A stretch of DNA of 62,683 bases, the filler included, from Hausera hauseri (taxonomy: Eukaryota), in assembly GCA_046269625.1 (NCBI GenBank). It is 10 parts of 10 records of this genome, joined end to end, with 100 filler letters (N's around TTAATTAATTAA, not from the genome) between each part and the next. Parts side by side here need not be neighbours in the genome. Positions count along the whole stretch, not along the records: positions 46,374 to 52,000 come from JBJURY010218188.1; 9 more parts are not named here. The stretch is one strand, 5' to 3'. Of the stretch, positions 14,784 through 57,458 are shown in pieces (position 1 is the stretch's first letter; each line of letters begins with the position of its first letter). The notes beneath the pieces are model-generated. The model made no database searches and was not told where the DNA came from. It saw nothing but the letters and a program-made list of their open reading frames with translations. Both the position numbers and the translations under genes were made by a program.

Positions 14784-14784
14784 G

Positions 14785-29147: not shown

Positions 29148-29597
29148 TCATTCGTAATAAATGTGTACATTTTCCATTATAGCAGGTTTACATTGTGGAC
29201 ATTGGTGGGTTACTTTGGTGGAACACATTTGACAAACAACTAGATGGCCGCACATTAAGAATACCGTATCTACTTTTCTTTGTTTACATAGTAAACACAT
29301 AAACTGGCAGTCTCGCACTTTGTCCATTATTTTCTCTTTCAAGCTCTTTAACGCACCGCGTACCTTTTCAACAGTATTAAAGTAATTTGTATCATACAAT
29401 CGGTGAATGTACATTTGTTTTAACACAATAATTAGATTTTCTATAGAGCTACAATCTGTTGCTGCCATCAATGCTAATGACGCTAAATCTTCTTTAAATC
29501 CAAAATTACCTGCTGCTCTCGCAACCAGTTCACTATCAAGTACTTGGCACCATCCATCAAAATTTTGCAACTGCTTCAGTTGATTAACTATTTCCAT
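29148..29597 (-). CDS. IAP-type C-terminal RING finger protein (no BIR visible)
   Basis: CLLC....DTVFLMCGHLVVCQMC......CPQC...I....HIY; TATAAA upstream. Confidence 0.85.
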   Translation of the reverse strand: MEIVNQLKQLQNFDGWCQVLDSELVARAAGNFGFKEDLASLALMAATDCSSIENLIIVLKQMYIHRLYDTNYFNTVEKVRGALKSLKEKIMDKVRDCQFMCLLCKQRKVDTVFLMCGHLVVCQMCSTKVTHQCPQCKPAIMENVHIYYE

Positions 29598-29719
29598 GAT
29601 GATTACTATTATTACTATAACCTACCCATATTTATAGTTTTTGAACTATTCAACTGACCAATACTGCTAAACATGTCGTGGACCTTATTTACAGAAAGAA
29701 AGAAAGGAACAGAGAAATA

Positions 29720-36372: not shown

Positions 36373-37233
36373 TCTAGGAAAACTACAACAAAGGACGGTG
36401 GGAATGTTCTGAGAATTGTACTGAAAATATGTAAGAGAAATGTACTGAGAAAGTGACTCAATTAAGATGTCCAGGTAACTAAGCTGTCAATAAACCAACA
36501 ACAACATACTAAAGGACCAGATGTGAAATAACAAAGTTGTCTTGCTTCGACTAGGGGGAAGAAGGGGCTAAAAAAAGATACGTCTGATTCTGTTGACTTT
36601 GATATTTTAAAAAGAGTCACAAAGTGCTGACAGAGTTAGAAAGGTGCTCCTTGAATTAGGAAAAGAGTATTTTTAAGGTGCTCTCAGACAGCAAGCTGTC
36701 ACATCTCCTTCCTCTGTTCCACTGACGACACGGTGAGGAACAGGATGGGTAGCTGTCACGAACTGGAGGAGGCTGCTGTCAGAGATGATGATTACTTTTT
36801 TCCTTCCTGTTGAAGGTTTTCAACCACAGAAACCTCAATGAAGGAAGTCAAGCAATAGTTGTTCTTAACCAGATTCTTTGAATTTTAACATTATTGACTA
36901 TCAATCGTTAGTATTTTAAGATTTAAAGTAAGAAACACTATGAAGAAAAGAAATAAAAAACAAAATCTTCTTGTGTGACTCTGATGGCTCAATTTCTTGC
37001 AGACAATTTCGGCTGACCTAGCCATTTTAAATACAGGATGCATAAGTACCTAAATTTGTTGAATAAATTACGATTGTCATTCAGCGTAGACCATGTTTTC
37101 TTTATGTATCGGCTGCTCATGTTATAACTGTCACATCCAGAGCAATGGGGGAATCTGAGAAAATCACGGTAACTACAGTTTAAGGTTTTTAAATGGTGTT
37201 TTTAAAGGTGTTTTCCTAATGATTTCTTAGAAC

Positions 37234-37394
37234 AGAAATTAGTCACCATGGCAAAGAATTCCTTACAGTATATTCAATTCCAGAAATTAGTCATCATGGC
37301 AGAAAGTTCCTAAGAGTATATGCAGTCCCAGAAATTAATTGCCATGACAAAAAATTTCATGACAGCATATTCAGTCCCAGAAATTAGTCACTAT
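37234..37394. repeat. Degenerate minisatellite, about 48 bp x 3.3
   Basis: Recurring cagaaattagtca.catggca unit. Confidence 0.75.
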
Positions 37395-37499
37395 TACAAT
37401 GCAACAAAAGATGCGGTTGATGTTTAGGATGAACGTATTGGCTCAAATCGCTGTAAGCTCGAGGTTAACTGTTAGTCGAATTGTTGAACATATATTCAT

Positions 37500-40335
37500 T
37501 GTCATCAACACTAAATTAAATTCTTCGTTGAATGAAAATGAAAAAGAAAAAAAGATTAAAGAAATTTATAGATTACGTCAAAAAGATTTTGTTCCAGAAC
37601 CTCGATACTTATCAGAAATTGAAAAACAAGAAAAGATTAATAAGCAAATCGATGCAGTAATTGATGAAGTTCTTAATCACAGAATCGAACCATCTCCAAT
37701 AGTAATTAGCAGTGGTGAAGTCACCCCTATTGGAGTGGACGAAACTCAGTTAATAAAAGAAGATGAAGAAATTGATATACAGAAATTCATTAAAGAAGGA
37801 CAAGATTTACTTCTTACTAAAGATGTGACCACAAAGAACGACTAATTAGACAAATTATGTTTACTCATGTTAAAGAAAAAGAAAATGAAGCAAGAACAAA
37901 AAGAGCAGCTGAAAGAGATACGCACTGATATGGAATTATGGCTAAGTAAAACTTATGAATCAGAAATTAAAATTGAACTTAAGAAAGTCGATGATATCCT
38001 AGATCAAAAACTAAGTGATAAAGACAAATCCTTTTGGACTGAACAGAAACAATTATTAGAAGGCGCGAGATTACCACCTATTAACTCTGGAAAGAAAGAA
38101 ACTATCAACGAAGTACGGATTAAATTAAGTCAAACAATAGTATCGTATCTATTTAAAGTCTTAGAGACAAAATCACTATGTAAATATTTGCTTCGGAATT
38201 CAATTATTGATAAATCAGTAACTCTTAAAAAGAGAATTAATCATTTAATTGAACAATTGAGAAGTTTTGGTATAAAAAGCCCTGAAGATAACGAGAAAAC
38301 GTTAACCAAAATCCTTGATGAAACCAATGAACAGTATCAATGTGTGTCTAATGAGAATGATTTAGATAAGAGTGAAAACGAAATTGAAAATGAATTAATT
38401 CTGATTTCTATAAAATAAATTACCGACAACTATCCTCCTATGGTACCTCCAGTTACCATCAAAGAACTTACTGAAGAAGTAGAAACTACTGACGATTTTC
38501 TTAAAAGACTAAAAGGAATCAAATTTTCTCCGGATTGCAAGAAGTTTATAAATGAAATAAGAAGAAAAGAAGGAAGCGAACCTCTTACCGATAACGAACT
38601 TCCGTTGATAATTGATGAAAAATCAGACTTAAAAGAAAGAATGGAAAAATTAAAAGGACCAGTGTCAAAACGATCAGATATCATACAACAGTTACAAAAA
38701 GCAATTCTCCCAGAAGAAATTGAGAGTAATACTGCCGATCTAATTGAAACAATACAACCCAAAATCAAAAGAAAACCTATTGTAGAGAAGATGCGCTTAT
38801 GCAAACCTAGTGACGTTAGAATTAGTAGAGAAAAATTGCAAGTGCCAGTTGATGTAGTACAAGATACTCTCTGTGATACGACTGATTATAATTTCGGAGA
38901 TGACATCAACATTACCGATTTCAGCAAGTGTGATTTGGACAACATCTATCCTGAAAGATTCCCAGAGGATGAAATGGACAATGAGATAGAGACTCGACCA
39001 ACTTTACTTAAAAGAATGAATGCTTTGGAGGAGTAACCCGAAGAATTAGATGACTTATTAATGACATAACTCAACAAGGACGGAAATATTCAAGAAATTT
39101 TAGAAGCAGTAGAGAAGTTATCTAGTAAGGCGGCAGATAAATAGAGATACAACTCTACTCCACGAACGCTATTGAAACTATTAGGAAAATATTTCCTAAG
39201 CAATCAATATTAAAAAAATATATATTAAAAATATTAAAAAGTTATTGTTCGAGCCATGTTAACGGAATCGTCTTTCCTGATATAGAAATGAATCTAGATA
39301 GTCAATTTGCGGACCTTGAACAGATGATCAAATGCCAAACCAATAGAGTAATGAAACACTTAAGAATTGAATATTATAACAGAATCTTAGACTCAGAAGA
39401 ATTTTTAATAAATGTTGGAATGATACCCACAAATATCAACGCCGTTAAAGTTATGCCAACTAATGAATTAACTCAAGAGGAACCAAAACGAAAAATAATA
39501 AATGGAGAAGATATACATGAAGATGAATCTATTATGGGAATCCAATGTAAACAAACTTATTTGCAACATTTAAAGGAAGCAACAGCGGAAAATTTGAAGA
39601 AACCACTTATTGATATAGAAGATAAAGAAATCGTACAGCCAATAGTAAGGAAAACATTGTTTGACCTTAATAAGCGCGCCAGACCTAACAAATTAATGAC
39701 TGTTGCTAAAAATTTCGCTACCAAAATTATGGATTATGAAACTCCAAAATTATATAAATAATATAAAGAGGTCAAGAAACTGGGTAGAGAAATCTATTAC
39801 ATAGATATTGGAAAGGATTCGATTACCCCTCGATCTCCAAAATGGAAAAAACGGGTTTAGGAACAGCTGAAATTTATGAAGAATCTTAAGAAAAATTCAC
39901 AGTTGAAAAACTTCACAATTGATGATATCGTACAACTAATCCTAGAGAAACCATCCAGTATAAATCTTGAAAAGGTGATACTGTTGTTAATATCCGAGAC
40001 ACTCAATGAAAATGGATTGAAAAATACAACAGGCAAAATCATTCATGCTAGCAAATCAATAATTCCGCAATATGGAAGATGGAGAGACCTATTTCTACGC
40101 AATGAAAACGAAAGTTTACTCGAAACAGAACCGAAAAATATAGAAAAGGCTATTCAAGAAATTACTTTAAATGCATCCCATGAAAAGATTGTTCCCATCA
40201 TAATTGAGAAGATGACAAATCAATTACAAGAGGAAATTCAGAAAAGGGATAGTGTAAAGTCTAATGGAATATTCGTACAACTCATGTTACTCTTATTATT
40301 GTTATTTTCGAGTTTTAAAAGAACTGGAACAATAT
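37500..40335 (+). pseudogene. N-terminal E/K-rich helical part of endogenous viral/retroelement polyprotein, copy A
   Basis: Consecutive ORFs broken by single stops or frameshifts, running in frame into an internal signal peptide (IFVQLMLLLLLLFSS). Confidence 0.7.
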
Positions 40336-41311
40336 TGGCCTATGATTGCAACCAGATATATGAAGGCAGTTACTATTCATTGATGGATCTTCAGTCATGC
40401 CCAGATGCTCTTCCGAGAAAGCTGGAGACGCAAATGCAAAATCTATATATTTATTACGACAAAACTGTTACATATAAAAGGACTGGAATGTTCCTTACGC
40501 GTTTCTCGCACTATTTCTCACTGTGGCTACTTACACCATGACTCGTACATCAAACCAACTACTATACCTAAATATGTGTCAGTAAATCCCACATATTGTA
40601 GAGATGCGGGAGAAACCCAGCAACTGAAATGTGGAGAAATCCTGTTGACCGCCATAAAAGGACAAGTAACTCAACAAGAAAAATGGATCGCTGGATATAA
40701 AGATGAAAAAGGAAACTGTAGAGGAGGAAATTTTGACACAGGAAAAGGTGTTGAAGCAGGTAGCATAGTGCATGACCAGTATGAGGTTGAAATTAAGGAT
40801 AATACCTATTTTTTTCGAAACCAGCACAAATACAATGGCAGACGCATCCTTTTGTAAATTACAAACAGGACATTGTCATACTAGAACCGCCATTATAGTT
40901 TGGACACCACCAACGAGTTATGATTGTACATTAGTACAAATCAGAAAAGGAAAATTCAATGTCACCACAGGAAAACGTTATGTCCGCCATTATGAGACTA
41001 ATTTCGAGCATACCAATATTCAAGTTATTCCGGAAGTAAAAACACCCAAGATTGTAATATCAAAGGATATCAAAGGAGGAGTCAAATTCATACAACAAGA
41101 TGCTATTACGAAATGTGGACAGCAAGTATTCAGTATAAATTACGATAATTACTTTATATCCGAAAGAAAAATTAAAGGAGCAGATAATTCTCCCTCCAAT
41201 AGAGCTCAGTTAGTGAATATTGCAGATTATATCGCAAACCAAAATGACTTTCTATTCTACCTAACTCATAAAACTATCGAAGAAATATATTCCGAAACAA
41301 TCCAAAATTTT
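40336..41311 (+). pseudogene. Chuvirus-G/gB-like class III fusion glycoprotein ectodomain, copy A (truncated by the spacer)
   Basis: AYDC....YSLMDLQSC, ECSLRVSRTISHCGYLHH.S, C...., IAG....GNCRGG, C....G.C......IVW.....C, CG.....NY. Confidence 0.85.
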
Positions 41312-41411: not shown

Positions 41412-41800
41412 GTGGGAGTTGGACTCCACCAGGGCTGCCCATTGTCACCGATTTCATGCATGCACAGAGAGAACTTGTAAACTCCACCCAGAAACATCCC
41501 CAGCCCAGATTTGATCCAGTGACCCTATTGCGAAAGGCAACAGCTCTACCAACTGAGCATCAAAGGCTCAATCAGTTACACATCTGTTAACATTTAAAAT
41601 GCCATCTAGTGGGCTGGATATAATTGTAACATGGGCCATATCTGACGTATGGGTTATGAATTTGATGACACTTGGTATGAGACCCAGGAGGCTGGGGTGA
41701 TGAAGGGTAGGTTTGGCTGTGCAAGAGGGGGGAACCAGAAAGCCTGGAGAAAACCCCTACATGCAAAAGGAAAACATTCAAACTCCACAGAGAAAAGTCA
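41412..41800. repeat. Teleost-type RTE LINE sliver and SINE fragments
   Basis: VGVGLHQGCPLSP RT motif at 41412; two gagaac.t..aaactccac.cagaaa-like SINE motifs (about 41465-41560, 41730-41795). Confidence 0.55.
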
Positions 41801-41920
41801 AGCAGATATTTGCAATGTAATCCTTTCTTTTTTTGTTAACCACCATGTGGTTTCACCATGTGGACACACATGTGCTTTCATTGGCCAGAAAAGGACTAGG
41901 TCAGCTCTTGGGTTTGCACT

Positions 41921-44900
41921 TTATGTATATTGGCCAAATTTCTTCCCAGATGATTTGTTATTGGCATCAGAAAGGTGAGAAGTTGTGTAGGAAGCTTCAA
42001 CACTTGTGTTAGGTAAAGTCCTGGTGTTATGATCTACACTTGCTTTCTTGGTGAGAAATTTTTGTGGGCGTTTTCGATGCACTTTTGTGTCAGATGTTTG
42101 TTGGTTAGATTTTTTGGAATTTCTACCCGCAGTCGGAATCGCAATGGGATCAGGATTTGTGAACCTTTTGTTATTGAAGTCTGGAGAAAGACAGGCTCGG
42201 CTCTTGAGTTGGCATCTTTTTAATATTTGGTGTGCGTTGGTCACATAAACACTGTTTTTGAAATCAGCAAGATGGGCCATCGTGATGAAGTCATGGTTTA
42301 GCGCATCACTCGAGAGAATTCTGTCCGCTGAATTTATCATTAATATGTTCCTGATAAAGTCTATAAAGGATGTCAGATCTTCTATTTCAATAGGATCCTC
42401 GGTTTCAGGTGCCATTTTCTGCAGGTCATCCAGAGACTGTAAACGATCTGAAATCATGTTTCCTGTTTCTTCTGTATTTTTTTTGCGTCTCTTAAGTCTC
42501 CAAACAAGACCCGATTTTTTCATGTCCAGTTTAAAAAAGCGATGGACGTGCTTGCCAAAATTCAGTGAATTATGGTCTGGCATACCATGCAGCTTTACCA
42601 TCATTTTCACATTTTCAAATAACGATACTGGATACATATGTTCAGCAAGAAACAGGTAAAGTAATGTAGCTCCAGTACTCCACACATCAACACTTTCGTC
42701 CAGCGGAAAGCCCAGGATAACTTCAGGTGCTTTATAACCGAAAGCTTGGATATCAGAAATCAGTCGTAATTCTGAAGTCTGACAAGCAAGGCCAAAATCG
42801 ATCAGTTTAACTCTAAATAGCGTTTTTTCATAATCAGCAATCATTATGTTGTCGGGTTTAATGTCGGTGTGGGTGATGCCAATTTGTTTCAGTGCGCTAA
42901 GAGCTACTAGCGTTTGTTCAGCGATCGGTCTGATTTCCGACACGCTCAGAGGTTTGCAATTGTTTTTTCCAATCCAGTCAAATAAGCTCAGATCTAACAT
43001 TTCAAACACAAAGCAAGTGCTGTTCTTATATGGAAAGCAGTGAAAAAACTTTATCAAGTTGTTTTTGTCAGCGTCAAGCTTTCTGAGACGTTTTAGTATG
43101 CATGCTTCTTGCTTAGCTGACAAGTCATCTTCTTCACCTATTGCTTTTATTGCTACAAATTCCTTTGTGCCTTTTTTTCTGCACCTAGCAACTTGTCCGA
43201 AGCTTCCTTGACCAAGTATTTTATAAACGTGGTAAGAAGTTGATCTATGATGGATGGTGGTATTTTCATTGAAAAATAATACGGACAAATTCATAGCGTT
43301 TCTGGAGTCTTTCAGGCTGAAGTCTGGGTTGTATGCTGTGTCATCTTTGTCATAATGTGAGTTCTCAAGGTGGCACCTTGACATCATTTCTTTTGCCATT
43401 GTTCCTGAAGAACTTTCACCTGCTTTAGTAAGGTGTTTCATTGTAATGAAGTTGTGCCGAAGAGCATCACCTGGGAGAATCCTGTTTAATGGATCAACTG
43501 TTAGCATCATCTTAATAAGGTCCACAAAGGCTTTGACATCTTCTAATGCAGTGGGATCTGTTATGTCAGGTGCCATTTGGTGTAAATCATCAAATGACTT
43601 TAAGTTATCATAACAGTTGCCTTTCTCATCAGTGCAACATTCTGTTGCCTGAAAATATTCCTTAGGTGTTTTGAACTTCCAAACGCTTGTAGGCCCTCTC
43701 TGGAGGAGAGTAAAAAAGTCCATTGATCGCCATCCTTTCTCCAGAAAATATTTCTCTGGTTGGCCATGCAGTTTTACAATGAACCTCAAATAGTTGTATT
43801 CACAGTGGGAAGTAGGATAAAAAGATTGGCCAAGGAAAAGAAACAGCAATGTGCATCCCAGACCCCACATATCAATACCTTCATCTGGTTGAATACCCAA
43901 GTTAACTTCTGGTGCTCTGTAACCAAAAGCCTGAAGATTCTGACCCTTTGATAATGTAGAGGTTTGACATGCAGCCCCAAAATCAATCAGCTTAACCCTA
44001 AATGGATTTGACCTCTGATTGACAAGCACTATATTAGTTGGATTTAAGTCTGCATGGGTGATGCCAATGCTTTTGAGTGCTTTAAGAGCTACGAGCATTT
44101 GTTGACAGATCGGTCTGATTTCAGCAACTTCTAGAGGTTTCCAGTGCCGTCTTTCTATAAAATCATACAAGCTTATGTCTAACAACTCAAATTTGAGGCA
44201 AAAGCATGACTTAAACTGAAAACAGTTAAAGAACCTAATGAAGTTGTTGTTGTCCGGGTCGAGCCTTCTGAGACATTTGAATATGTCAGCTTCTTTGTGA
44301 GCTGTAACGAAGTCCGACTTATTCACTATTTTTATAGCTACAGTCTCAGAGGATCCGTCTTTTCGACATTTAGCAACTTTTCCATAACGTCCGTGTCCAA
44401 GCACTTCCTCGATGTAGTAATGTGTCCATCTCAAGTTATCTTGTATAACAAATCCTTTTTCAAACGGACTAATCAAATATACGACAGAAGAGTCGCTATC
44501 CGTGTTGTCCGTTTCATCTGTGTTGTCCGTTTCATCTGTGGAGTCATTGCCATCTGTTTCTTCTGTGGTTTCTGCTTCATCCATGGAGTCTGTTTCATCC
44601 ATGGAGTCATTGCCATCTGTTTCTTCTGTGACTTCGGTTTCATCCATGGAGTCTGTTTCATCCATGGAGTCCGTGCCATTTGTTTCTTCTGTGACTTCTG
44701 TTTCATCCATGGAGTCTGTTTCATCCATGGAGACCCTGCCATCTCTTTCATCTGAGCTCAGGAGTCCAGATCCCTGCATTAACTTATTTGCACAGTCAAC
44801 ATAGAGGCCATTTTCTGAATTATCAAGGTGGTCCATTGTGATAAACTGATGATTAAGCGCATCAGCTGGGGAGATTCTGTCCACTGGATTTAGTTCTAAC

Positions 44901-45904
44901 ATGTTTTTCAGGAAATCTATGAACGCTTTTAAATCATCCAATTCAGTAGGATCCAAGACTTCATCCATGTTAATTAAGTCATCTAGTGAATTCAAATGAC
45001 CATAAGGGATGTTTTTGATTTTAACTATATTTCCTGTCGCTCTTTTGTATTCTTTGAATGTTCTAAGCCTCCACTTTTTGTTAGGATCTTTCGTGTCCGT
45101 GGTAAAAAAGCGCCTGGCACGCCATCCTTCGTCAAGCAAAGAATCATTTGGTTTGCCGTGCAGTTTAACTATAGATCTCATATAATTATACTCACAGTGT
45201 GTACCATACAACTCTTCACCAAGGAGTAGATATGCCAGCGTGCATCCAAGGCTCCAGATGTCAATGCTTGGACCCACCGATAAGTTTAGAAACATTTCAG
45301 GTGCACTATACCCGCAAGTTAGATGGAATGCAGCCTCTGTTAGTTTTCCTTGTTTAACAGCCGCTGAAAAGCCTGCAAGTTTAACTTTAAACGGCTGAGA
45401 GACATGGTCAACAAACAATATGTGTTCAGGCTTTATATCTGCATGCATAATTCCAGTGTCTTTCAGTGCACTCAAAGCCACCAACATTTGGTGAGCTATT
45501 GCTCTGATTTCACTTACCTCTAAATATGCCATGTGTCTTGAAGACACAAATTCTTGTAGGTTTAAGTCAAGATGTTCAAATGCTAAACAGATACGGTCAT
45601 TGAACTCGAAATATTCATAAAACTTGACAAAATTATTCCTGTCAAGACCGACCGTACCGAGAAGACGTAAAGCTTTGATCTCTCGCTCTTCTGCGTCGTA
45701 ATACTGCTTCTTTGTGCATTTTAAAACAAACATTTCGTTTGTTTTATCGTCTCTGCAAGCGGCGATCTCTCCAAAGTTCCCATACCGTAGGATCTCTACA
45801 ATGTTGTAAACGCTTGACTCACTTCTGATTTCAGAACCAACTTCTGGTTTAAAAGCTGGATCCGCGACGCAGTTTGGCGAATATTTTTTCAAATATCCAG
45901 CCAT
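41921..45904 (-). CDS. Intronless protein with three tandem HIPK-like (CMGC) kinase domains; probably teleost
   Basis: Intact ORF of about 1327 aa from ATG 45904; three units of G.G.FG.V..C / VAIK / FE.LD / H.D.KP.N / VKLIDFG / APE / D.WSLG, with an acidic repeat between domains 1 and 2. Confidence 0.93.
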   Translation of the reverse strand: MAGYLKKYSPNCVADPAFKPEVGSEIRSESSVYNIVEILRYGNFGEIAACRDDKTNEMFVLKCTKKQYYDAEEREIKALRLLGTVGLDRNNFVKFYEYFEFNDRICLAFEHLDLNLQEFVSSRHMAYLEVSEIRAIAHQMLVALSALKDTGIMHADIKPEHILFVDHVSQPFKVKLAGFSAAVKQGKLTEAAFHLTCGYSAPEMFLNLSVGPSIDIWSLGCTLAYLLLGEELYGTHCEYNYMRSIVKLHGKPNDSLLDEGWRARRFFTTDTKDPNKKWRLRTFKEYKRATGNIVKIKNIPYGHLNSLDDLINMDEVLDPTELDDLKAFIDFLKNMLELNPVDRISPADALNHQFITMDHLDNSENGLYVDCANKLMQGSGLLSSDERDGRVSMDETDSMDETEVTEETNGTDSMDETDSMDETEVTEETDGNDSMDETDSMDEAETTEETDGNDSTDETDNTDETDNTDSDSSVVYLISPFEKGFVIQDNLRWTHYYIEEVLGHGRYGKVAKCRKDGSSETVAIKIVNKSDFVTAHKEADIFKCLRRLDPDNNNFIRFFNCFQFKSCFCLKFELLDISLYDFIERRHWKPLEVAEIRPICQQMLVALKALKSIGITHADLNPTNIVLVNQRSNPFRVKLIDFGAACQTSTLSKGQNLQAFGYRAPEVNLGIQPDEGIDMWGLGCTLLFLFLGQSFYPTSHCEYNYLRFIVKLHGQPEKYFLEKGWRSMDFFTLLQRGPTSVWKFKTPKEYFQATECCTDEKGNCYDNLKSFDDLHQMAPDITDPTALEDVKAFVDLIKMMLTVDPLNRILPGDALRHNFITMKHLTKAGESSSGTMAKEMMSRCHLENSHYDKDDTAYNPDFSLKDSRNAMNLSVLFFNENTTIHHRSTSYHVYKILGQGSFGQVARCRKKGTKEFVAIKAIGEEDDLSAKQEACILKRLRKLDADKNNLIKFFHCFPYKNSTCFVFEMLDLSLFDWIGKNNCKPLSVSEIRPIAEQTLVALSALKQIGITHTDIKPDNIMIADYEKTLFRVKLIDFGLACQTSELRLISDIQAFGYKAPEVILGFPLDESVDVWSTGATLLYLFLAEHMYPVSLFENVKMMVKLHGMPDHNSLNFGKHVHRFFKLDMKKSGLVWRLKRRKKNTEETGNMISDRLQSLDDLQKMAPETEDPIEIEDLTSFIDFIRNILMINSADRILSSDALNHDFITMAHLADFKNSVYVTNAHQILKRCQLKSRACLSPDFNNKRFTNPDPIAIPTAGRNSKKSNQQTSDTKVHRKRPQKFLTKKASVDHNTRTLPNTSVEASYTTSHLSDANNKSSGKKFGQYT
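44495..44735 (-). repeat. Coding acidic repeat (DSMDET / EETDGN)
   Basis: 18-bp and larger nested repeats inside the kinase ORF. Confidence 0.9.
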
Positions 45905-46017
45905 TTTCAAACGCTACGTTTTCAGTAGTCCGGAAACAGTCCTTTCGGTTCTAAGTTTCACCGAAGAATGATGTTCCAACGTTTCGCTTAAGTATTAATG
46001 GCATGTAAACAATGATG

Positions 46018-46230
46018 TAACAAAGGATCAAAGACTGTGATGCATAACAAAGGATCAAAGAATGTGATGCAGAACAAAGGATCAAAGAATGTGATAGTGA
46101 TGTCATCAAGCTAAATGTTGCTATAGTGATGATGTCATGAAGCCAAAAAAAGTTCTAATTTCCTGTATTCTATTTAGCTTGTTTACATCATCACTTTCAC
46201 ATTTGTATTCCATTTAGCTTGATGACATCA
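46018..46230. promoter_or_regulatory. Upstream tandem (aacaaaggatcaaaga.tgtgat x3) and 20-bp inverted repeat
   Basis: tgatgtcatcaagctaaatg (46098-46117) vs catttagcttgatgacatca (46211-46230); the tandem units contain ATCAAAG and AACAAAG HMG-box-like sites. Confidence 0.5.
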
Positions 46231-46273
46231 TCACTAAAATCGATTTGTTAAAGAAGCTAGATTCTTAGCCCTG

Positions 46274-46469: not shown

Positions 46470-48840
46470 TAAATGAAAAGATGCATATAATATGCTAGAT
46501 AAGGCTATAATGGCAAAACCAATAATCGCCAATCAATTGTCGGAATGGCCCGAATTAATAACGCGACTAAGTAAATTAGTGGAAAACCGTAGGAAAGAAT
46601 TTCCAGAAAGCAAGCCTTCTATAAAGAAACAGTTAAAAGAAAGTGCACATAATTTAAACACAATAAAGGCAGAAATAGATATACGAACGCAATTCGAAAC
46701 TTTACGACGACTAAATTTTATGAAGAAAAAGCAGGAAACGACGATACTGGAAAAATCTATAAAATGGTCGAAGAGACGAATTTTACAAAAAAGCGGAATA
46801 TGACTTGCAATTTCTATCCAAGATTAAGAAATGTCCGATTGGAAGGAGTTTAACATTTAACATATAAACCTATCGATGAGATCCACCCAAGATATTGAAA
46901 CCCTAGACATTTGTCCGAAACATCAAGTCACTTTGACGGACGCAATAAAATTTTTGCATAAATTAAAAGACTGGATGGCCGGATCAGATCAGAACTTCCA
47001 CATCGAGTTGACAAAGATAAGAAATGACGAACAGCTTAGTTTTCAGAAATCTAAGTTCGTAAAGAAATTGTTTGATGCAATGGATCCCGACTCAAAAGTC
47101 ATAAATGAGATGTATGTACTTAATGGTAGAAATGGCAGAAATTAATGATGAGAAGATGAGGCAATTGATGCCCAAGTTACAGCAAGTAAAACAAACGTGC
47201 ATCAGAACAAAACAAAGAGCAACGAGACTAGATGAACTAGAAAAAGAACTCGAAAGCTATCGGAATAAATACACCTTTACCGAATCAGAAATTAAAAACC
47301 AGCGTGAATTTGTACAGAGATGGCAAAGAGGTGTAATCATTGAATTAGCAGATTATCATCAAAAAGGACTTATCAATTCTAACGAATTAAGCGAATCACT
47401 AAAGATGATTCAGTATGCTGTGGAAACGGAATAGGTTTCCGAACTACGCAGATAAAAGAAGTACAACCAAGATTGAAAGAGATTAGGGAAAATGTGCAGA
47501 AAACGAATACAGCTTTAGTAGGCTATGGACTTCCAGATATTGGAAATGAACCAGAATGGGACGCATACTTCGAGGCGATAACGGTCAAAAATCCTATTAC
47601 TCCTGTACAGCTAAAAGAAATAGAAATGGGCCCGCAGAACAAGAGATACAATATGGAGATGCTCCTGGATTCAGCGCTAACTGAAAAAGATTTAATCAAA
47701 CTAATTAACGTAAATATCACTGAAAGTAAGTTAAGGCAACTCATTCCGACCTTAACTAAATTATCTAGTGCGAATACGATTTATAGCACGGTGCCGAAAC
47801 TTTTGATAATGGAATAAGCTAAAATCTTGAGGGCTAAACCTGAGGTAGCGATGAAAGTAATGATATCGTCCGAGTGGATGGACGAAAAAGAATGTGAATT
47901 AACTACATATTCCTATGTGAGGGATGTAAGAGAATGGTTATTAAATAATGGCGGAACAAACGAGTTAAATTACAGGTTTTACTTCAGAGGTAGAATACTA
48001 GACGATTTAGAACAGTTTATAGACGTCGGAATTATTCCCGACGAAACAAATCAAATAGTGGTAATAATAGCCAATGAACAAAGTAGAGAAGAAGCCACGG
48101 GTAGAGCTAAGACAAAACAATGCGTAGGACAAATTATGGGAGTCCGAAACGCTACAATGTATTTTGAGTATCTACAAACGGACGAAGATAAGGATCAATA
48201 CGATAAGAATTTAGTACCACTAAATGAAATGACAGCCAATGTTCCAAGACAGAAACGCCCAGTCGGTAGGCCTAAGAAGACACGAGAAGAAGTCGATTAT
48301 AATGGAAAATTGATTAGAGAATTGAGACAAATGTCATTTCCGACTTTCGGCTCACATAATGAAGAATTAAACGAGTTAGTGAAGAATTTAATACGAATTG
48401 TAAATTATTCAAGCCTTCTAGATGACACGTTAGATGGTAAAGAAAAAGTCATATTCGATGCAGCTAGAATGATGAGAAGTTCACATTTTAAACTATCGAA
48501 TAATAACTTAACCGATGAATCGGTAATCGAAAACATTATGGTAAAAAACACCAATGAAGAATTGAGAAAAGTATTACTATACTTAGCTATTAAAATAAAC
48601 CTTAATCGGGAGAATATAATTAATAAGGCTATAGGCTTAGCACGAAAAGCGGCAAGAAAACTGCCGTGCGAAGTAAATTGGTCAAGACTATTTGACAAGG
48701 AAGAAGACAGACAAACCAATAATAAACTCGACGATATGTTATGCATTTTGACAACGGCGGACGTTGGATACCGGAAAAACGAATCAAATTGGCTAATCAG
48801 CTTACTCACTTTGATGATGCTAATAAAGCACATAAGCGCT
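46470..48840 (+). pseudogene. N-terminal part of polyprotein copy B: coiled coil, ubiquitin-like domain, AT-hook, helical domain, internal signal peptide
   Basis: Mostly one frame with isolated stops; YRFYFRGRILDD..FIDVGI (Ubl), KRPVGRPKK (AT-hook), WLISLLTLMMLIKHISA (signal). Confidence 0.75.
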
Positions 48841-50974
48841 GTTACCGTCTACGACTGCGATAAGTTTAAACTAGGGCAGAGATATTCCCTAATGGATTTA
48901 GAAGTGTGTGAAGATGCCAAATCGCACAAGTTGGAAGCAAGAAAGAGAAATTAAATCCTGTATCAACAACAAGAACTGATATCGTTGGATGGGATGGAAT
49001 GTATGCTAAGATGATCTCGTAGCATTTTTCGCTGTGGTTTACTACACGGACATTCCGCAATAATCAAACCAACCACTGCTCTCATTCCAATGAACCTAGA
49101 ACGCCAGCACTGCAAACAGGCTAAGGAAACTGAAAGAGTACAATGGGACAATATACAATTAGAAGTGCAACCAGGAAAAATAATTAGGGCATACAAGATA
49201 GTGGCAGGAAGGTTAGACATGCATAACGGACATTGTTACGGAGCGGAATACGACACTGTAAAAGGATTGGAAGCAAATGTGGTAGTCGTGGATTTTTAAG
49301 AATCGGAGATGCGACCACTGAATGTAATGTTCCATAGTGTCACTAAGTTATACACTGAAAACCAAAAATGTCACTTACATGATGTAACCCGTACTTTTCG
49401 AAGTTCTGTTATAGTGTGGGAATCTCCCTCTGGAAGAAGTTGTAATTTTATTAAAATTAAGGAACTAAAGTTTAATAAAACCACCGGAAAGCGATATGTG
49501 GATAAATCTGATACCAGCTCAAGGACACGCGAAGACGTGTCGGAACATCCTACGCCCACTATATTAATCTCAGATCATCATGGACTGAAATTTATTAAAA
49601 AAGAGATTATTTCCCTTTGTGATGTAGTAATGTTTGCTACTAACTATGAGGCGTTCTTCATAGCCAAAACTGAGATAAATGCGAAAACCTATAAGTTGGA
49701 AACATAAGATATCCGGATTAAGGACTACTTGAAGAACAAAGACGATTACTTTTATTATAAAGGACAAGTCGGAATAGCTGAATTATATCACAAAATGATA
49801 ACGAACGACTGTAAATTAGATACCGAGATCATGAAGACAAAATTGGCCCTTATATACGCCAACCCAGAGTTGGCTTATCCAATAATTCCTATGGGAGAAG
49901 GAATTTTCGGTCGAGTCACAGGCGAAGTATTACTAATTTACGAATGTGAAAAAAGAGATGTACCCATTAATGTGGAAGAAAAACGTTGCATTTAGGAACT
50001 TCCCGTTATTTATCAGAATACCCCAAGGTTAGCTACACCGTTGACGAGAGTGTTATTGGATAACGCAACCAACCAACCATTCTTAAGGATTGCAAGGCAA
50101 GTTTAGGAGAACCCACGTTTAGACGTAGTAAAACAGACTGGGTTAGTCTGCCAAATGGAGGTATTACTGCCGCCAAAATAAACTAACAGGAACGAATCTT
50201 GCGAAAGGAAGTACGGACGATAAATTCCAAGATACTTCGTCGAAAGGCATACACAGGCCCAAGGAAATCGAAGCTTTTAGACAATTCCTCGCTTTTGCGC
50301 GACAACGCACACATGAACTAAATCGAGCCATGACCTCGGTAGTAGATGATACACGATATCAGGCCAAATGGGAATCTTTACTCGGTGTAAACCATTATCA
50401 GCGAGTAACCACAGAAATACTCTACAAAATTTGGGAAAGATTTTTAATTTTTGTCCAAGCCGCATCTAGATTCTTGGCGATATATTTTCTGATACAAATG
50501 ATTAAAGCAGTCATCCAAGCAGTAATTAATTGGTATGAAATATTTACATTGACTGGATTTTCATGTAAGCTACTGACTGCAATCATAACGCCCTTTGGAA
50601 AATTCTCAAAAGCATACGAAGAAAATAGATGGAAATCCGACGTAGAACGCCATGTCGGTTACTATAATCGTAAACGAAAAGGAAGGCCCATATTCTTGCG
50701 AAAGCGGGGAGTTACAAAACCTAATACGCAAAGAAATAACTCAGATAATGACGAGCCTAAGGGAGGAGAAGTACTTTCAGGAAGAAACAGACATAAGACG
50801 AACTCTGTCATTAAAGGGTCATTGCCGATGCTACCTCCTACCGCTCCAGTCTATGAAGACTGCGACAAACGATCAATGAGTTCATATCAAACGGAAATCT
50901 ATAAAAGGACGATTAATGTAGAAGACTCGTATGAAGACACGAAACGCTACGTGATCCTACGGAAAATGTGTTAG
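48841..50974 (+). pseudogene. Chuvirus-G/gB-like class III fusion glycoprotein with TM anchor and PTAP tail, copy B
   Basis: VYDC....YSLMDLEVC, EC.LR.SRSIFRCG..HGHS, VAG....GHCYG, NDC, GRVTGEVLLIYEC....RC.*ELPV......TPLTRVL, W..F..F...S.FLAIY...IK..I....G.S.KLL.A TM region, PPTAPVY. Confidence 0.9.
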
Positions 50975-51853
50975 CGACAGCCGGTGGATGATTCCAGGAT
51001 GTTGTATTCTCCGAGAGAACCTCGGAATATAGAAACTGGATCAACGGTTTGGGACAACCCAAGGTTAAGAACCTTCCAGAATACCGAACTACACACTAAC
51101 AATCGAGAACCATTAATCAGCACTCATGAAGCAGAAAACTTAAACGTCGAAAACAATGAATTATACCCAAACGGAGAGTTAAGACAACTGGAGGAGAACA
51201 TAGTATCCTCCCCAGAAATCCGAATCAATGGATATAAAATATCTGTGACTAAACGGCCAAAAGTAGCATTAAACCGTTTTGGAACAGTAATAGAAGGAAG
51301 ACCCTTCGCTAAAATCACTATCGAACACTGGGAAGTTTATGCATTAATCGATACAGTTTCTGAGATGTCTGACATTAATAATGATTCAATACATCAAACG
51401 CTGAGAGGATAATTATATCCACCATCTACAAAGGACCCAGAAAGCACATGAGCTTTTGGTCAAATGTCGAAACCGATGTTTAAACGGAAGCCAGAAGTCC
51501 AAATAGTTGGACAAATTTTCCGTCATGAATTTGCAGTCATGAAACAATTAACCGATGACGTCGTCTTAGGATGTGATCTACTGAAAAGGTTACCAAATAT
51601 AGCAATCGATTTGCAAACAGGAAAATTAATAGAAATCAGACAAGATAAAGGTATAAAAAACGCCAAAGAAAGAAAATTTGGAGAAGTATGGATACCAGTC
51701 GATGAAAACAATCCACCGAAAACAGAGATAATAATCTATGATCAAGTTCAACAAGATGACGATCAACCGGTATATTTTGAACCGAAAGAGACGTTAAATC
51801 CGAATATAATACTTAGTAACATACTCACAAGAGTACCCTCTGGTCGTGAATAA
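50975..51853 (+). pseudogene. Retropepsin (retroelement aspartyl protease) and post-protease region
   Basis: GRPFAKITI....VYALIDTVSEMS (DTG>DTV, one base change), RHEFAV..L..DVVLGCDLL...IDL; same frame as the glycoprotein tail. Confidence 0.85.
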
Positions 51854-52100: not shown

Positions 52101-52675
52101 GACTGCGGTTAGTTTAACTTTCCCGCGCACTTTGAGTGCAAATAAAACAAGTGTTTTTCAAAATATACAACTAGGCGCTACCCGTTGAGGGGACGGGACT
52201 GTAGCGTTGATAGCACTCTTAGTGATGCAGTTATATTTAGTAAAGCAGTGATATTTATTTGATTCTACTGAAGGGGGTGTCTACAAAGTAACCAGGTCCA
52301 TAACATTACTGGTTTGTATAATACACATTTAATGATGATTTTAAAGGTGTACAAAATGTATCAGTTCAATGTCGTTCGCACGAGAAATAGAAACAGACCA
52401 CCATATAATTCTATAAAATTTCAGGGTTTCGCTCTCCCTACAATGATGTCAAACTTGTACACTGAAAACTGTTCTCTTATCGGCACATATTTCCTGTACC
52501 CTATTACCTTTTCCTGTGGATATTGTAATCGTTACTTTATTCTAAATTTAAGTTGAAAAGATTTGTTCCAAAATGGAATGACATGTTGCTATACATTCAA
52601 AATCATGCTTAATTTGAGAACTTGAATAAAGAACACAGAACTTTTTTTGTTCAGCACCAACTGTTAACATTTTAC

Positions 52676-53985
52676 CTGATATGGCATGACATTTTCAGAC
52701 AGCTGTAGTGTTTCACTGGGTGAAACAGTGGTCACTGTCACAGACGTTATTTCAGTAGATGGTGGAATCTGTGGTTACAGATGAAGGTTTAAGAGTTCTT
52801 CTTGTAAATATGAATAAAAGTATTTTGACAATGCAATGAAACTTAAAGGATACAAACCTGCATTATTTCCACACGAGGCAAGATGTACAGTCTGCTTTTT
52901 CCAACACATTTTTTAAGTTCTCTCACTGAGCCAGCCTGTAACTTTTGAAGCTTGCGCCTCTTTCCTGCCCTTGCCAACTCAAACCCAGTCAGATTTAAAC
53001 TTATCTGAGGATAACTCTGACAGATGAAATTATTTAGGTCAGACAGCGTCCACGTCAGGTCTATCTTCAAACTTGCTCCACCCACTGTTGACTCATGGTA
53101 AGCTGGTGGGCCTAAATAAAGAAACATAAAAAGATATATCAACACATTAGTGGCAAACACCAAAAAGGTTATAACTACAAACTCATAGCTCAGTTAAAAA
53201 CATGGAATATTCAGCCTATATCTGTCCATACAAGTGCTATTTGATACACACATACCTCCACCTAACCAGCAAGTCTTTACTTTTTAAGTTGAAAAGGCTG
53301 CCTATTATTTAAAGCATCTTGTCTTCATAGTGTAGGCTTTGATATTAAAATGTCTTGGACTAATACTTCCTTCCTTCCTAAAAGACATTTGCATTAATGT
53401 GTGGACAGATAAATAATTATCCTCATATTGCAAAAGTAAATTCACTGATGACAAAATGGTACAATGAGGCTTAACAACAAAAATTAATGTACAAGTAATT
53501 ACTATATTTCACATATCTTACCTACCTAATCCATTTTTGACAAGTTGTTGAAGGTCCGTTGTAGAGGGAAGAACATCGAAATTTGGACCAGGAAGAAGAA
53601 ACAGTCTCGCCTGCCACAAGGGATTTGCCCGTCTTCCAATGGATCCTATGACAGAAACTTCATATATAAATTTATTTTAAAAAAGCAACTATGAAGCAGC
53701 TATAACTACTATCTATAACTAATTTTATTTTAACTACTTAAAGTATCCTTATTATAAATAACAAATCCGTTAGATGATAACTTTTCCCTGGATAAATGTC
53801 CATAATGTTGCTAGCTTTCACGCAACTTTGCAACCTAACACAATTTTTGCTAGCTTACCTTGTCTGGCGGGGCGACGTCGGAAAAGTCGCCTTGTAGCAG
53901 ACAGTATTTCCTCTGGATTAGTAAGTTCCTGTCTTGCAAGAGAAATCGCCCCGAAAAGTCTGTCAAAAGCAGAAGAACTTTCCAT
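52676..53985 (-). CDS. Spliced teleost-like gene, first four exons; resembles N-termini of transposon-associated G2E3/HECT-like proteins
   Basis: Phase-consistent GT-AG exons 53985-53859, 53645-53526, 53111-52858, 52768-52676; motif W....L......YP......GFELAR...L..L.....LK..VG.SRLYI.P. HECT domain not seen. Confidence 0.6.
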
Positions 53986-54109
53986 GTCTGTTACATTATG
54001 AACTCCAAATGCGCCGATAGTGTTTGAAAGCGGGAAATACAACTTCCTGCCTCCGTGACTCGTGTGTGCTCACTCTGACGTTCCACTCTACGTGTCCAAA
54101 CGCATCAAA

Positions 54110-55760
54110 TTTAATATTCGTATAAACGGATTTATAGATAGGAAGAATGGCAATTATGGATATCCACAACTAAATTATTCCCAGTACAATTGCAGTTGTA
54201 GATATATGTAAAGAAATTTTTACTAGTAGGAATGTATTCCTGATGTTACAAATCATGTTGTTGATATCTGAAATGTTTTCTTCATTTTTGATATCTTAAA
54301 AGATAGTATAACCAGTAACAATTGGATTATAGAGATCTAAATTTAGTTTTTAGACATCCAGAATGTTAATTTTAGATAGGAGAAATGTTATTTCGGACAT
54401 CCGAAAGTAAACGCCCGATGACGTCATTTGTACTAGTAAGAACTCCATTCCTCCTATCTAAAATGAACATTTTAGATAGGAGAAATGTTATTTTGGATAT
54501 TCGAAAGTAAACGCCCGATGACGTCATTTGTACTAGTAAAAACTCCATTCCTCCTATCTAAAATGGCCATTTTAGATAGGAGAAATGTTATTTTAGATAT
54601 CTGGAAGTAAAAGCTCAATGACATTATTTGTACTAGTAAGAATTCAATTCTTCCTATCTAAAATGAACATTTCAGACAGGAAGAATTCCATTGAAGACAT
54701 CTTAAATACATATCCAGTTAAGCAAATATATGTTAAAACGGCCACTTAAAAAAAGTAAAGATTTGTAGATATCTGGAACTTAGTTTTTACTAGTACACAT
54801 TTGATTACAGATCACTGAAATGTTAATTTATACTGGCATAAATGTAATTGGTGATATCTGTATTACAATTCTGACTAGGAATATATTAATTGTGACTAGG
54901 TAGAATGCATTAGTGCTATCTATAATAGAAATGTGGCTAGTCAGCAAGCCTATTTTATGTTAAAACGGAGCCCTATTATTCTGCTGAGAGATAGTCAAAA
55001 TGTGTTTGTAAGTATCTATAATTGTAATTTGTATAGGCATTATTAACATTTCAGATATCTGAAATTCCACATTAACTAGTCAAATGATCAGTAGTTGATA
55101 TCTTTAATTAGATTTATACTGGTACAAATGTATTTTGGATGTCAAGAATTGATATCTGGATATCTAGAATGATTTATTCATTTCTGATATCTGAAATGGT
55201 CATTATGACTAGTATTAACTGGATTATGGATATCTGAAATTAGAGTTCCTCCTCGTCAGAATTCATTTATAGACATCCAGAATGTTTATTTTAGATAGGA
55301 AGAATGTTATTTCAGATATCTGGAAGTAAAAGCCCAATACACATGAATGGGAAAAGTGACGTCATTTGTACTAGTAAGAATTACATTCTTCCTATCTAAA
55401 ATGAACATTTTAGATAGGAAGAATGTTGTTTTAGATGTCTGGAATTTTCATTTTGACTAGGAAGAATTGTGTTTGAGATATCTGAAATAGATATTCATTC
55501 AACCTATTAAATGTTAAAATGGCGACTTAAAATTTGTAAAGATTTATAGATATCTTAAACTAAATTCTTAATAGTTCAATTTTATTTATTGACATCCTGA
55601 ATTTAAGATTTTCCCAGCAAACATGTAATTGTAGATATCTATAATTACAGTTCTGACTAGTAAGAATGTAATTTTGACCAGGAAGAATCTTTTTTTAGTG
55701 ATCTACAAATGGAATAACAGAGAGGAGCTCACTTGAATAAATGTTAAAACGGCCTACCAT
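54110..55760. repeat. Complex palindromic repeat, likely non-autonomous DNA transposon interior, with 100-bp tandem units
   Basis: tttagatagg recurs at 54371, 54471, 54571; internal palindrome tcctatctaaaatg..cattttagatagga; dense gatatct and actagt motifs. Confidence 0.75.
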
Positions 55761-55797
55761 AGGTAAGGTTTCCACTTCTCACATTACATTGTAACCT

Positions 55798-55945
55798 GGG
55801 GTGGTAGCTTGATGGTCAGTCTGTGTTGTAATCCTGAGGCTGCAGGTTTGAGCCTAGGTTGCTACAGGAAGGACATTCAGTGAAAAACAGTTGCCAAATT
55901 GTTGGTGAAACCCCAGAAGAATGGAGCAGCTGAAAGAAAAACAAC
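55798..55945 (+). repeat. Possible tRNA-derived SINE with RTE-like tail
   Basis: A/B-box-like head (gtggtagcttgatgg...ggtttgagcc), ending ggagcagctgaaagaa. Confidence 0.4.
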
Positions 55946-56680
55946 TACTGTATATCAGCCATGTGAAAGAAGCCAAATTATTTGGTAATGGAGCCATAAA
56001 GTGATGACATAATTCTTTTAATTTTGTCCTACTTTAGACTTGTTTAAGACCAAACTTGTTGACTGAAAAAACTTTGGCTTTAAGTGGAAATCCATTCAGC
56101 TAAGCATCCATCGTCTACTTCTAAAGTCTTCTGTATATCTACAGAATAGAACATTCTGCTCACACCCTGGGCCGTACCATTTTACATCAGACATTAGTAC
56201 GTCAACAAGTCCTAAACAAGCTTTGTTGATGTTACAGAGTGGGACACATTGATAGAGACTCAACTCTCTCTGTTTAAAGTAAATGACTGCCCATGATCAC
56301 AAAATGTAAGAAATAAAATAAAACTGGATCTAAAAATCTGTTAATTAGTCTCAAAATGTCCTTCAATACAAAGAAGCTGATTTAAATTAAATATAAAAGC
56401 AAAAAATTCCAGCAAAAAGAGAAGCAATTTTAAAAATTAAATATGTTTTGTCAAGACCTGGAGAATTTTACCAAACTAATCTTGCTCATTTGTTTCAGCT
56501 GCCCCCAAATAGGTTACAGTTACTTGTACAAAAAAACTAGTGTCTATTTTTTTTACTCTGTGACTTTCTGCATAAAACAGATCTCTTAGATGAGATGTAA
56601 TGTAAAGCAGCACTTTGAAAAAAATCTCTACAGGAATTTAAGTAATTAAGATTGACACAGGTTGCCTTTCTGAGGAGAGA

Positions 56681-56735
56681 ACCAATGACAGCAGATTACA
56701 AACACCTGTGAAACCTGCAGGTTAGGGTATTTAAA
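56681..56735 (+). promoter_or_regulatory. Proximal promoter of the hyosophorin-like gene
   Basis: CCAAT (56682), E-box CACCTG (56703), TATTTAAA (56728), ending about 40 nt before the ATG. Confidence 0.55.
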
Positions 56736-56775
56736 CCTCAGATGTTGGTTGCCTCTTTAGTCAGAGACAGGAACC

Positions 56776-57458
56776 ATGGGAGGTGCTTGGTTGCTGATTG
56801 GTTTTATGGCAGCTGTGTGGCTCAGGACAGGTTTGTACAAAGACAGATGTTTTATTTATTTATTTAATAGTTTGAGAGGGTTTAATGGTGAATGTTCAGT
56901 TAGAGATGGGATTTACTGACTAGTTTCTCTGTAATCCAACCCAGTTGGTTTGTTTCATCAAAAAACTGAACTTGTGTAACTTTTCTATCTACAGGGTCCT
57001 GTTTACCAATTGATGTGCCACACAGGGCTGATCATGATGCAGTTGACCTGCAGGATGGTAAGTAGACAATATTAACACAACAAGCAACTGGAGGAGCACT
57101 AACCTATATATTGTTCATGCAGTTGCATCGTCAAGAGATATTGCTCTAAGAAATGTGGTGACATTTCTCCAGTCAAAGGATACCAGGGTGAACCAGCAAG
57201 AAAAGGAAGGTAAATGTTTGCTCAGTTGCTGGAAAAACTTCATTGGTTCTGTTTAGATTTTTAAAAGTACAGATTCTAAAACTGACTTTACTAAACCTAG
57301 TTTACCTGGAAACCAATGAAGTGGATGCAATTTGGGACAACGTGACTGCAGGCGACGAGGGCCACAGCAACGTGACTGCAGGCGACGAGGGCCACAGCAA
57401 CGTGGCTGCAGGCGAAGAGGGCCACAGCAACGTGACTGCAGGCGACGAGGGCAAAAGC
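56776..57458 (+). CDS. Hyosophorin/polysialoglycoprotein (PSGP)-like fish egg cortical alveolus glycoprotein; 4 exons, 3'-truncated
   Basis: Exons 56776-56830, 56995-57057, 57123-57209, 57301-> give MGGAWLLIGFMAAVWLRTGSCLP...VDLQD.VASSRDI...EVYLETNEVD, then (DEGHSNVTAG)n. MGG..LL, SC.P, V.LQ, SS.D and YLETNEV match the trout PSGP precursor as I recall it; the repeats carry an N-x-T sequon. Confidence 0.8.

Follow-up and report, generated by a model that had tools for sequence, protein, structure and literature searches.

A dead, high-copy retroelement fragment, very probably Burro-like, with Env ahead of its protease in a Hausera hauseri assembly

Identity and published kin

A dead internal fragment of a retroelement, very probably a Burro-like Ty3/gypsy LTR element of the GAG-ENV-POL 'errantivirus' type, fills one contig (46374-52000, 5.6 kb) of the window analysed here, a 62,683-nt stretch of short contigs from the Hausera hauseri assembly joined by N44-TTAATTAATTAA-N44 linkers. 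The element is one member of a high-copy family: in run X1, 16,266 pieces of contigs, most of them 85-95% alike, were placed over all 30 of its bins. The copy is dead, with stops and frameshifts and with neither Gag nor RT on its contig. One part of the original prediction stands, a polyprotein of a retroelement in which a class III envelope protein (Env) lies upstream of the protease (PR); the other part, a new lineage, does not: the Env-in-the-middle layout had already been published, for Burro/GYPSM1 in 2019 (PMC6431247) and again in 2026 (PMC13524379). The layout is thus striking yet published, and with the fragment the Burro-like elements would gain one further family and possibly a host group new to them.

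In planarians, Burro/GYPSM1 is described as a single ORF with a Gag...Ubl-BCL2-Env-PR-RT layout and an Env similar to mononegavirus-type glycoproteins (PMC6431247), within an element that has LTRs and a total length of over 30 kb. Likeness to that account extends to a ubiquitin-like (Ubl) domain, a helical domain in the BCL2 position, an in-frame Env, PR, a PR-RT linker and high copy number, as well as to decaying copies with stops and frameshifts, which are described there for Dugesia japonica (PMC6431247). The window element differs in being a 5.4-kb dead fragment with MATH, BIR, ankyrin, Gag, RT, integrase (IN) and LTR all absent from its contig, in a barely recognisable BCL2 domain and in a host that is possibly not planarian; the Burro account, for its part, makes no mention of an AT-hook, tail motifs or a post-integrase membrane protein (PMC6431247). 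These comparisons are with the published description and not with an aligned, named Burro sequence.

Chary & Hayashi (2026) described GAG-ENV-POL elements with gB-type Env in flatworms, nematodes and bryozoans, including 9 flatworm elements with up to 215 copies, only intact elements being kept (PMC13524379). Gene order and Env type in these 'ancient errantiviruses' are as in the window element; the main text does not use the words 'polyprotein' or 'in-frame', and its passages on the elements do not treat accessory domains (PMC13524379). GAG-ENV-POL elements are not monophyletic and form distinct host-associated clades (PMC13524379), which lends some weight to an unlikely alternative, namely that the window element is of the same working kind but arose by independent rearrangement in a gypsy clade separate from planarian Burro. 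Its Env reaches no more than 32-33% identity to its best matches, the contig has no RT by which to place it, and the host may not be planarian. Against a separate clade, the cassette of Ubl and BCL2-position domains before Env is common to the window, its relatives and the Burro description, and the window Env is, by eye only, nearer to Schmidtea C1a than to the Bryozoa or Nematoda rows, its domains I-II resembling the Platyhelminthes_C1a rows of supplementary file 2 (PMC13524379).

The host of this Burro-like element is probably a non-methylating invertebrate within a partly fish assembly. A teleost host is disfavoured because CpG o/e on the element contig (1.14) and its few CpG-context transitions (5 of 29 listed, background about 0.19, from the best-supported 40 of 928 differences) contrast with the two fish-like contigs, at 0.53 and 0.43. 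Other identities were also considered. A continuous gag-env-pro-pol ORF in nematode ERVs was reportedly described by Sacco et al. in 2022. In these non-canonical ERVs the ENV/POL order is flipped (Sacco et al. 2022 as cited in PMC13524379), but they belong to nematode clades, and the Nematoda_C1 Env rows are unlike the window Env by eye (PMC13524379). Anakin is an LTR element that has taken up the same Pfam glycoprotein family (PMC7642597); it is BEL/Pao, not gypsy, and in BEL/Pao elements such as Roo, Tas and Cer7 Env comes after the polyprotein (PMC7642597). P0042 is an example of that order, with DUF5641 and then Env. Anakin was rejected, since Env precedes PR in the window and its relatives and the relatives' Pol is gypsy-type. 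Troyka, an aquatic-animal LTR element with one ORF (PMC12440569), was likewise considered and rejected. RT pieces on other window contigs have 30-35% identity to the Pol of P0003 over long matches; their contigs are unlinked to the element, to which they are not assignable.

Coding frames, envelope and protease

Some 5.4 kb of one strand had been read as coding sequence interrupted by stops and frameshifts, and the stop statistics of two frames bear this out: the 907 codons of frame 47383-50103 (+) contain 6 stops (binomial P 3e-22, given the base composition) and the 568 of frame 50147-51850 (+) contain 3 (P 4e-15). Within Env there is one frameshift, between 50104 and 50147; others fall within 46800-47430. 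The break-off expected at about 51855 also agrees with the data, similarity stopping near 51850 with the contig end at 52000, and the depth of family copies falling near 51850 from 5470 to 210 in the last bin. Profile and repeat searches found no Gag, CCHC, RT, integrase or LTR on the element contig, and no direct repeats there or in the loci L001 and L003.

An internal signal-peptide-like hydrophobic segment (48793..48849, +; hydropathy) shares the frame of the 378-codon ORF upstream and leads into the Env ectodomain (48850..50440, +). The two are entered from that ORF without a break, which puts Env in frame between PR and the region on the Gag side. Relatives have a similar segment at the equivalent position; its cleavage is putative. 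Stops interrupt the ectodomain at 48952, 49012, 49297, 49705, 49993 and 50104, with the one frameshift before 50147, and a transmembrane (TM) region follows (50441..50596, +; hydropathy and PF24664 positions 471-594). Pfam matches to the chuvirus-type glycoprotein PF24664 (E 7e-38 and 3.5e-16) identify the protein, and its region of the AF2 model mostly exceeds pLDDT 80. Foldseek with the 907-aa model returned only herpes gB as top matches (best E 1e-10, with a TMq of only 0.22), and 34/34 matches in a profile search of the PDB with Env were gB (best E 0.002). Searching the PDB by sequence, with proteins of the window as queries, gave nothing useful. A class III (chuvirus-G/gB-like) Env with signal peptide and TM is thereby upheld, and the chuvirus-glycoprotein motifs first quoted for it (YDC/SL.D..C, R....CG..H.S, GEV....C and C..ELPV...P.TR) are all present. 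In a quick Env tree of 51 rows (15 top matches and one in three of the other 104), the window Env groups with P0003-P0009 and P0153 (SH-aLRT 97%) and is separate from stand-alone chuvirus-like G; its branch is long (1.49), and the 'polyprotein' group was selected by similarity to the window.

The cytoplasmic tail and linker (50597..51298, +; delimited from the sequence, one stop at 50972) carry PPTAP at 50834-50848 and a YP..L-type motif. PTAP/YPxL-type motifs occur in 7 of 10 Env tails against 1.6 expected, a count that leaves out 2 of 12 proteins (no TM anchor) and uses a pattern picked after the sequences had been viewed. The retropepsin predicted after Env was found at 51299..51598 (+) by a profile from 11 relatives (E 1.3e-9) and by phmmer against P0004 (E 8e-8), the protease sequence alone having no Pfam match. 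It is decayed in this copy and, to judge by its sequence, inactive, with the catalytic motif DTV, not DTG, and in-frame stops at 51410 and 51449. The start of the PR-RT linker (51599..51850, +) is recognised by a profile built on the pre-RT linkers of 7 relatives (17.9 bits, equalled by 0 of 930 shuffles). This linker is described as dUTPase-like in Burro (PMC6431247); Pfam did not detect a dUTPase in the pre-RT linker of L001.

The assembly is mixed and broken into short contigs, so that a solo chuvirus glycoprotein EVE could come to lie beside an unrelated protease by chance nesting or chimeric assembly; this reading is here effectively refuted, and we give it next to no probability. The ORFs at 50330, 50984 and 51464 lie in a common frame, as originally noted, with a single TAG (50972) separating tail from protease, so that Env tail and PR share one frame, in which 421 codons contain just one stop (P 5e-13). 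Another family copy (record 6) crosses 50748-51225, the Env tail/linker stretch, gap-free. The same Env-PR order is found within single chains of 12 database proteins (P0003, P0004, P0006, P0007, P0008, P0010, P0012, P0014, P0017, P0018, P0019 and P0153, two of which are one cluster) and in two DNA loci. The linkage is real and not a matter of chance: in intact relatives a single ORF encodes Env-PR-RT-RH-IN, in some of them with Gag upstream.

The region upstream of Env

The N-terminal coding region (46477..47630, +; defined on sequence, with stops and frameshifts) has no convincing match among 152 proteins (best E 0.098) or in Pfam; the matching interval in Burro lies between Gag and the Ubl domain (PMC6431247). 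The coiled coil proposed at the N-terminus is not confirmed: in the four pieces scored, 16-70 of 100 shuffles equalled its crude heptad score. Smc-like coiled coil, MATH, BIR and ankyrin domains, which vary between Burro families (PMC6431247), were not detected on the fragment by Pfam or heptad score; an ankyrin domain was found in the relative P0153.

Downstream, a helical and ubiquitin-like unit (47638..48081, +; one stop at 47815) is recovered by a profile from 6 relatives (38.8 bits, a score that 0 of 958 shuffles reached), confirming a ubiquitin-like domain upstream of Env. It also matches L002 (tblastn E 4e-7), whose counterpart resembles Pfam ubiquitin PF00240 below cut-off (E 2.4e-4). 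The AT-hook survives as an AT-hook-like KRPVGRPKK motif (48253..48285, +; from sequence) containing GRPK, with DNA binding putative; of 16 relatives checked, 6 have GRP[KR] upstream of Env, two of these belonging to one cluster. An all-helical domain (48289..48708, +) then takes the position of the relatives' BCL2-like domain, and its assignment as BCL2-like is positional and weak (4.9 bits, 29 of 987 shuffles as high). Bcl-2 matches are also weak in P0005 (PF00452 E 1e-3; Bcl-xL chains E about 0.01) and L002 (E 0.042). Single-sequence AF2 of the Ubl-helical ORF gave pLDDT 37, the N-terminal half of the 907-aa model made with an alignment is mostly under 50, and neither the window's helical domain nor that of P0013 drew a usable match from the ESM Atlas.

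Another contig carries a second, diverged member within 36373-41311, mapped as 37363..41311 (+; tblastn 30-41% identity, E 2e-45), with a long decayed N-terminal region, Ubl (about 39282-39452; 26.8 bits, 0 of 970 shuffles as high), signal peptide and an Env (PF24664 E 2.5e-10) that runs off the contig end; the BCL2 assignment is absent there (664 of 999 shuffles as high). Gag was found on neither of the two contigs, and N-terminal coding sequence without assignment spans 1.1 kb in the first copy and about 1.9 kb in the second, as would suit a new retrovirus-like lineage of order X-env-pro(-RT) that lacks a normal Gag or falls outside Ty3/gypsy. Such a lineage is highly improbable: relatives with the Ubl unit and this Env clade carry typical Gag/CCHC and gypsy Pol, and Burro polyproteins, at about 4,900 aa, have Gag far upstream, at a distance beyond the element contig. 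The 'X' is no novel substitute for Gag but the Gag-Env interval, Gag or CCHC knuckles lying further upstream in P0006, P0013, P0017, P0019, L002 and L003.

Intact relatives and a possible mode of working

A HMMER search of 1.84 billion representatives placed among its best 12 matches 8 proteins of 1130-3243 aa with an internal Env. Word-seeded searches for longer homologues confirmed 0 of 2159 and 0 of 2970 candidates, which is weak evidence, and of 2 pattern matches in viral contigs none was confirmed. By Pfam, Env, PR and RT-RH(-IN) follow one another in one chain in P0003, P0004, P0012, P0014, P0017 and P0153 and in the loci L001 and L003. All 6 relatives reaching past integrase (P0003, P0004, P0012, P0153, L001 and L003) have Env-PR-RT-RH-IN in one ORF, as does P0017, ending inside integrase; the RT expected downstream of the protease is thus seen in relatives. 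The PR-RT-RH-IN order and GPY/F motif of the 6 full-length relatives mark them as gypsy type, while the window contig carries only PR. L002 has Gag-CCHC-Ubl-AT-hook-BCL2-like and then signal peptide and Env, with an in-frame stop between BCL2-like domain and signal peptide, and P0005 and P0015 stop just past Env, so that the single ORF is shown for part of the relatives.

Intact members would encode Gag, Ubl, AT-hook, BCL2-like domain, Env, protease(s), RT, RNase H and integrase in one long ORF, an arrangement shown in relatives. The ribosome would make the Gag/accessory part in the cytosol, the internal signal peptide would feed the ectodomain of Env into the ER, with signal peptidase cleaving just before the YDC motif, and the Env TM would halt transfer and return the chain to the cytosol. 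PR-RT-RH-IN would stay tethered to the Env tail until released by the element's own protease, which would bring Gag, Env and Pol together on one membrane, as flavivirus and alphavirus polyproteins do with their products. PTAP/YPxL-type tail motifs may recruit ESCRT for budding, or serve as YxxL sorting signals, and spread from cell to cell would be driven by the class III fusogen. Once cleaved, the signal peptide could serve the BCL2-like domain as a tail anchor and so keep the producer cell alive.

A second envelope protein, of signal peptide, ectodomain and TM, may follow integrase; it is suggested by relatives only, all 6 full-length members having hydrophobic pairs 3' of integrase and L001 a further pair between its proteases. 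Their post-integrase ectodomains belong to no real Pfam family, and a clear relationship was seen between only two of them, those of P0004 and P0153 (E 3e-5). This second membrane protein is possibly unreported, no description being found in the Burro account of PMC6431247, the passages of PMC13524379 or a literature search; supplements of Grohme 2018 and Sacco 2022 may already cover the accessory features. Taken as a whole, the picture of Burro-like elements as working enveloped viruses, with a multi-pass polyprotein, two envelope proteins (a fusogen before Pol and an attachment partner after integrase), a BCL2-like domain tail-anchored by the Env signal peptide and a host range reaching a fish-associated non-planarian, is tentative and rather doubtful.

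The intact relatives are more useful than the window fragment, and their Env-tail budding or sorting motifs, multiplied proteases and post-integrase membrane protein are testable. As the relatives show, elements of single-ORF design are common in public metagenomes; one single-ORF relative had been mislabelled as a bacterial protein.

Decayed polyprotein and its placement

The element fills its contig (46374-52000), whose readable DNA stops 150 nt past the last ORF. Translated by reading through stops, with X placed at each, the window copy holds two frames, at 47383-50103 (907 codons, 6 stops) and 50147-51850 (568 codons, 3 stops), in both of which stops are far below chance. Either side of the frameshift, Env matches Pfam PF24664 (Monjiviricetes fusion glycoprotein) collinearly, at profile positions 6-425 (E 7e-38) and then 471-594 (E 3.5e-16). 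Confidence in an AF2 model built on a 100-row alignment is confined to the Env part; all among the Foldseek matches listed for this model are herpesvirus gB (best E 1e-10), as are 34/34 matches in a profile search of PDB sequences with Env (best E 0.002). The protease had no match in Pfam and was located at 51299-51598 by a profile from 11 relatives (E 1.3e-9); it carries a DTV motif and two stops. The window copy of the element is unable to work. Stop counts, PF24664 and the protease profile confirm the colinear decayed polyprotein, Env then protease, of the original prediction; its ubiquitin-like (Ubl) unit is real, its N-terminal coiled coil was not borne out, and its AT-hook is present as a motif and nothing more.

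The predicted architecture was right and its novelty was not, as the layout is already published: the fragment matches the Ubl-to-linker part of the order given, in the portion of PMC6431247 covered, for Burro, giant gypsy-like planarian LTR elements. Env in frame before the protease, Ubl and a class III Env are all present in the window copy. For BCL2, 29 of 987 shuffles score as high as the window copy and 664 of 999 as high as a second, more diverged copy; the Bcl-2 matches of two relatives (protein P0005, metagenome locus L002) are weak. As to the dUTPase-like linker, the window copy resembles the pre-RT linker of relatives (0 of 930 shuffles score as high), and Pfam detects no dUTPase in the linker of locus L001. 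No defining Burro feature tested here failed, and the element is filed as Burro-like; its origin from a GAG-ENV-POL clade separate from Burro is improbable. GAG-ENV-POL order with gB-type Env is reported, in the part of PMC13524379 covered, from Nematoda, Bryozoa and Platyhelminthes, and is not monophyletic; supplement 1 lists 9 flatworm elements, and Schmidtea C1a Env rows in supplement 2 resemble the window Env by eye, including TP...G.RF....CG..VY.TNY.

Relatives and proposed maturation

A HMMER search of 1.84 billion representatives returned 419 matches at E <= 0.001, the best being long proteins with Env internal. Among 22 relatives scanned with Pfam, protease follows Env in the same chain in 11, five of which (P0003, P0004, P0012, P0014, P0017) also reach RT-RNase H; CCHC knuckles lie upstream in P0006, P0013 and P0017, and retrotransposon gag in P0019. 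P0153 (4844 aa) holds Env, seven protease motifs, ankyrin, RT, RH and IN. Three metagenome loci confirm the Env-containing polyprotein order at the DNA level: L001, a 5'-open ORF of 3426 codons (Ubl-like and BCL2-like, both assigned by alignment, Env, three proteases, RT, RH, IN); L003, an ORF of 2693 codons (Gag-Env-PR-RT-RH-IN); and L002, in which Gag-CCHC-Ubl-AT-hook-BCL2-like ends at a single in-frame stop and signal peptide and Env come next. That stop (3058-3060) lies exactly between BCL2-like domain and Env signal peptide; the frame is open elsewhere, and the stop is either decay or regulated read-through. A quick tree of 51 Env rows places the window Env, on a long branch, with polyprotein relatives (SH-aLRT 97), a group picked by similarity, so that the tree is supporting rather than independent.

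Protease motifs are multiplied within single polyproteins (P0153, 7; P0006, 4; P0004, 3; L001, 3), some located past the integrase. P0003 (HBK71150.1), deposited under a Flavobacteriaceae MAG as a hypothetical protein, is an Env-Pol polyprotein of 2627 aa and almost certainly eukaryotic contamination. Downstream in L001, a separate ORF (10617-12107, +) matches PF00929 (E 1.4e-5), an exonuclease of RNase T type; judged by eye, P0012 and P0015 seemingly have a domain of this kind upstream of Env.

The relatives establish the order of domains in a single ORF; hydrophobic segments flanking the ectodomain and the fold class are likewise established. On the proposed route, the internal signal peptide would insert Env into the ER co-translationally, signal peptidase would cleave before YDC, the TM would act as stop-transfer, the element's own protease would free Gag and Pol domains, and tail motifs might assist budding. 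Such motifs occur in 7 of 10 Env tails against 1.6 expected, under a pattern chosen after the fact, and an endocytic YxxL would account for YPxL equally well. It is possible that Env is made instead from a spliced or internally started message, since a Met lies 37 codons upstream of the Env start in the window copy.

All six relatives extending beyond integrase have further hydrophobic segments there, spaced like signal peptide and TM around an ectodomain (L001 8900-10282; L003 7640-8521; C-termini of P0003, P0004, P0012 and P0153), and a further unit of this kind sits between the proteases of L001. No known family was found between the post-integrase segments. The pair may be new, not being found in the portions covered of the Burro and GAG-ENV-POL texts.

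Copies, host and neighbouring contigs

One public run contains 38% of words, with 16,266 contig pieces, most of them 85-95% alike, covering all 30 bins, and one 481-nt piece spanning 50748-51225 gap-free. This run may be the source sample, and is therefore evidence for a high-copy family, not for an independent host. The second member, 30-41% identical, lies on contig 36373-41311, with a degenerate ~48-nt tandem array on its 5' side (37233-37399).

Ten short contigs make up the window, with N-padded TTAATTAATTAA linkers between them. CpG o/e is 1.14 on the element's contig and 0.75-1.04 on seven others; because two depleted contigs (41412-46273, 0.53; 52101-57458, 0.43) stand among these eight without strong depletion, a mixed assembly is suggested, of fish and an invertebrate such as a parasite. 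The former, preceding the element's contig, is likely teleost DNA given its depletion; it carries an intronless 1327-aa ORF (41921-45913, minus strand) in which an acidic repeat linker accompanies three HIPK-like kinase domains in tandem, and which is closest to killifish proteins (40-61% for the first domain). CpG decay is lacking in the element's family (5 of 29 transitions in CpG context, among the best 40 of 928 differences), which argues for an invertebrate host inside a fish-containing assembly, one that may lie outside the taxa so far listed for such elements.

Elsewhere in the window, 25143-29621 is a Polinton-like fragment on the minus strand, combining a RING-finger IAP-like ORF with a protein-primed DNA polymerase B in decay (PF03175, E 2e-4). 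Decayed gypsy-type gag/pol fragments at 1218-3131, 9236-10422, 13523-14793, 20865-22398 and 57559-61715 are spread over four further contigs and are not linked to the element. An AT-rich contig carries at 17440-18714 (+) an ORF of 424 codons whose N-terminus is a RING finger, and a degenerate tandem array of ~100 nt lies at 54196-55644.
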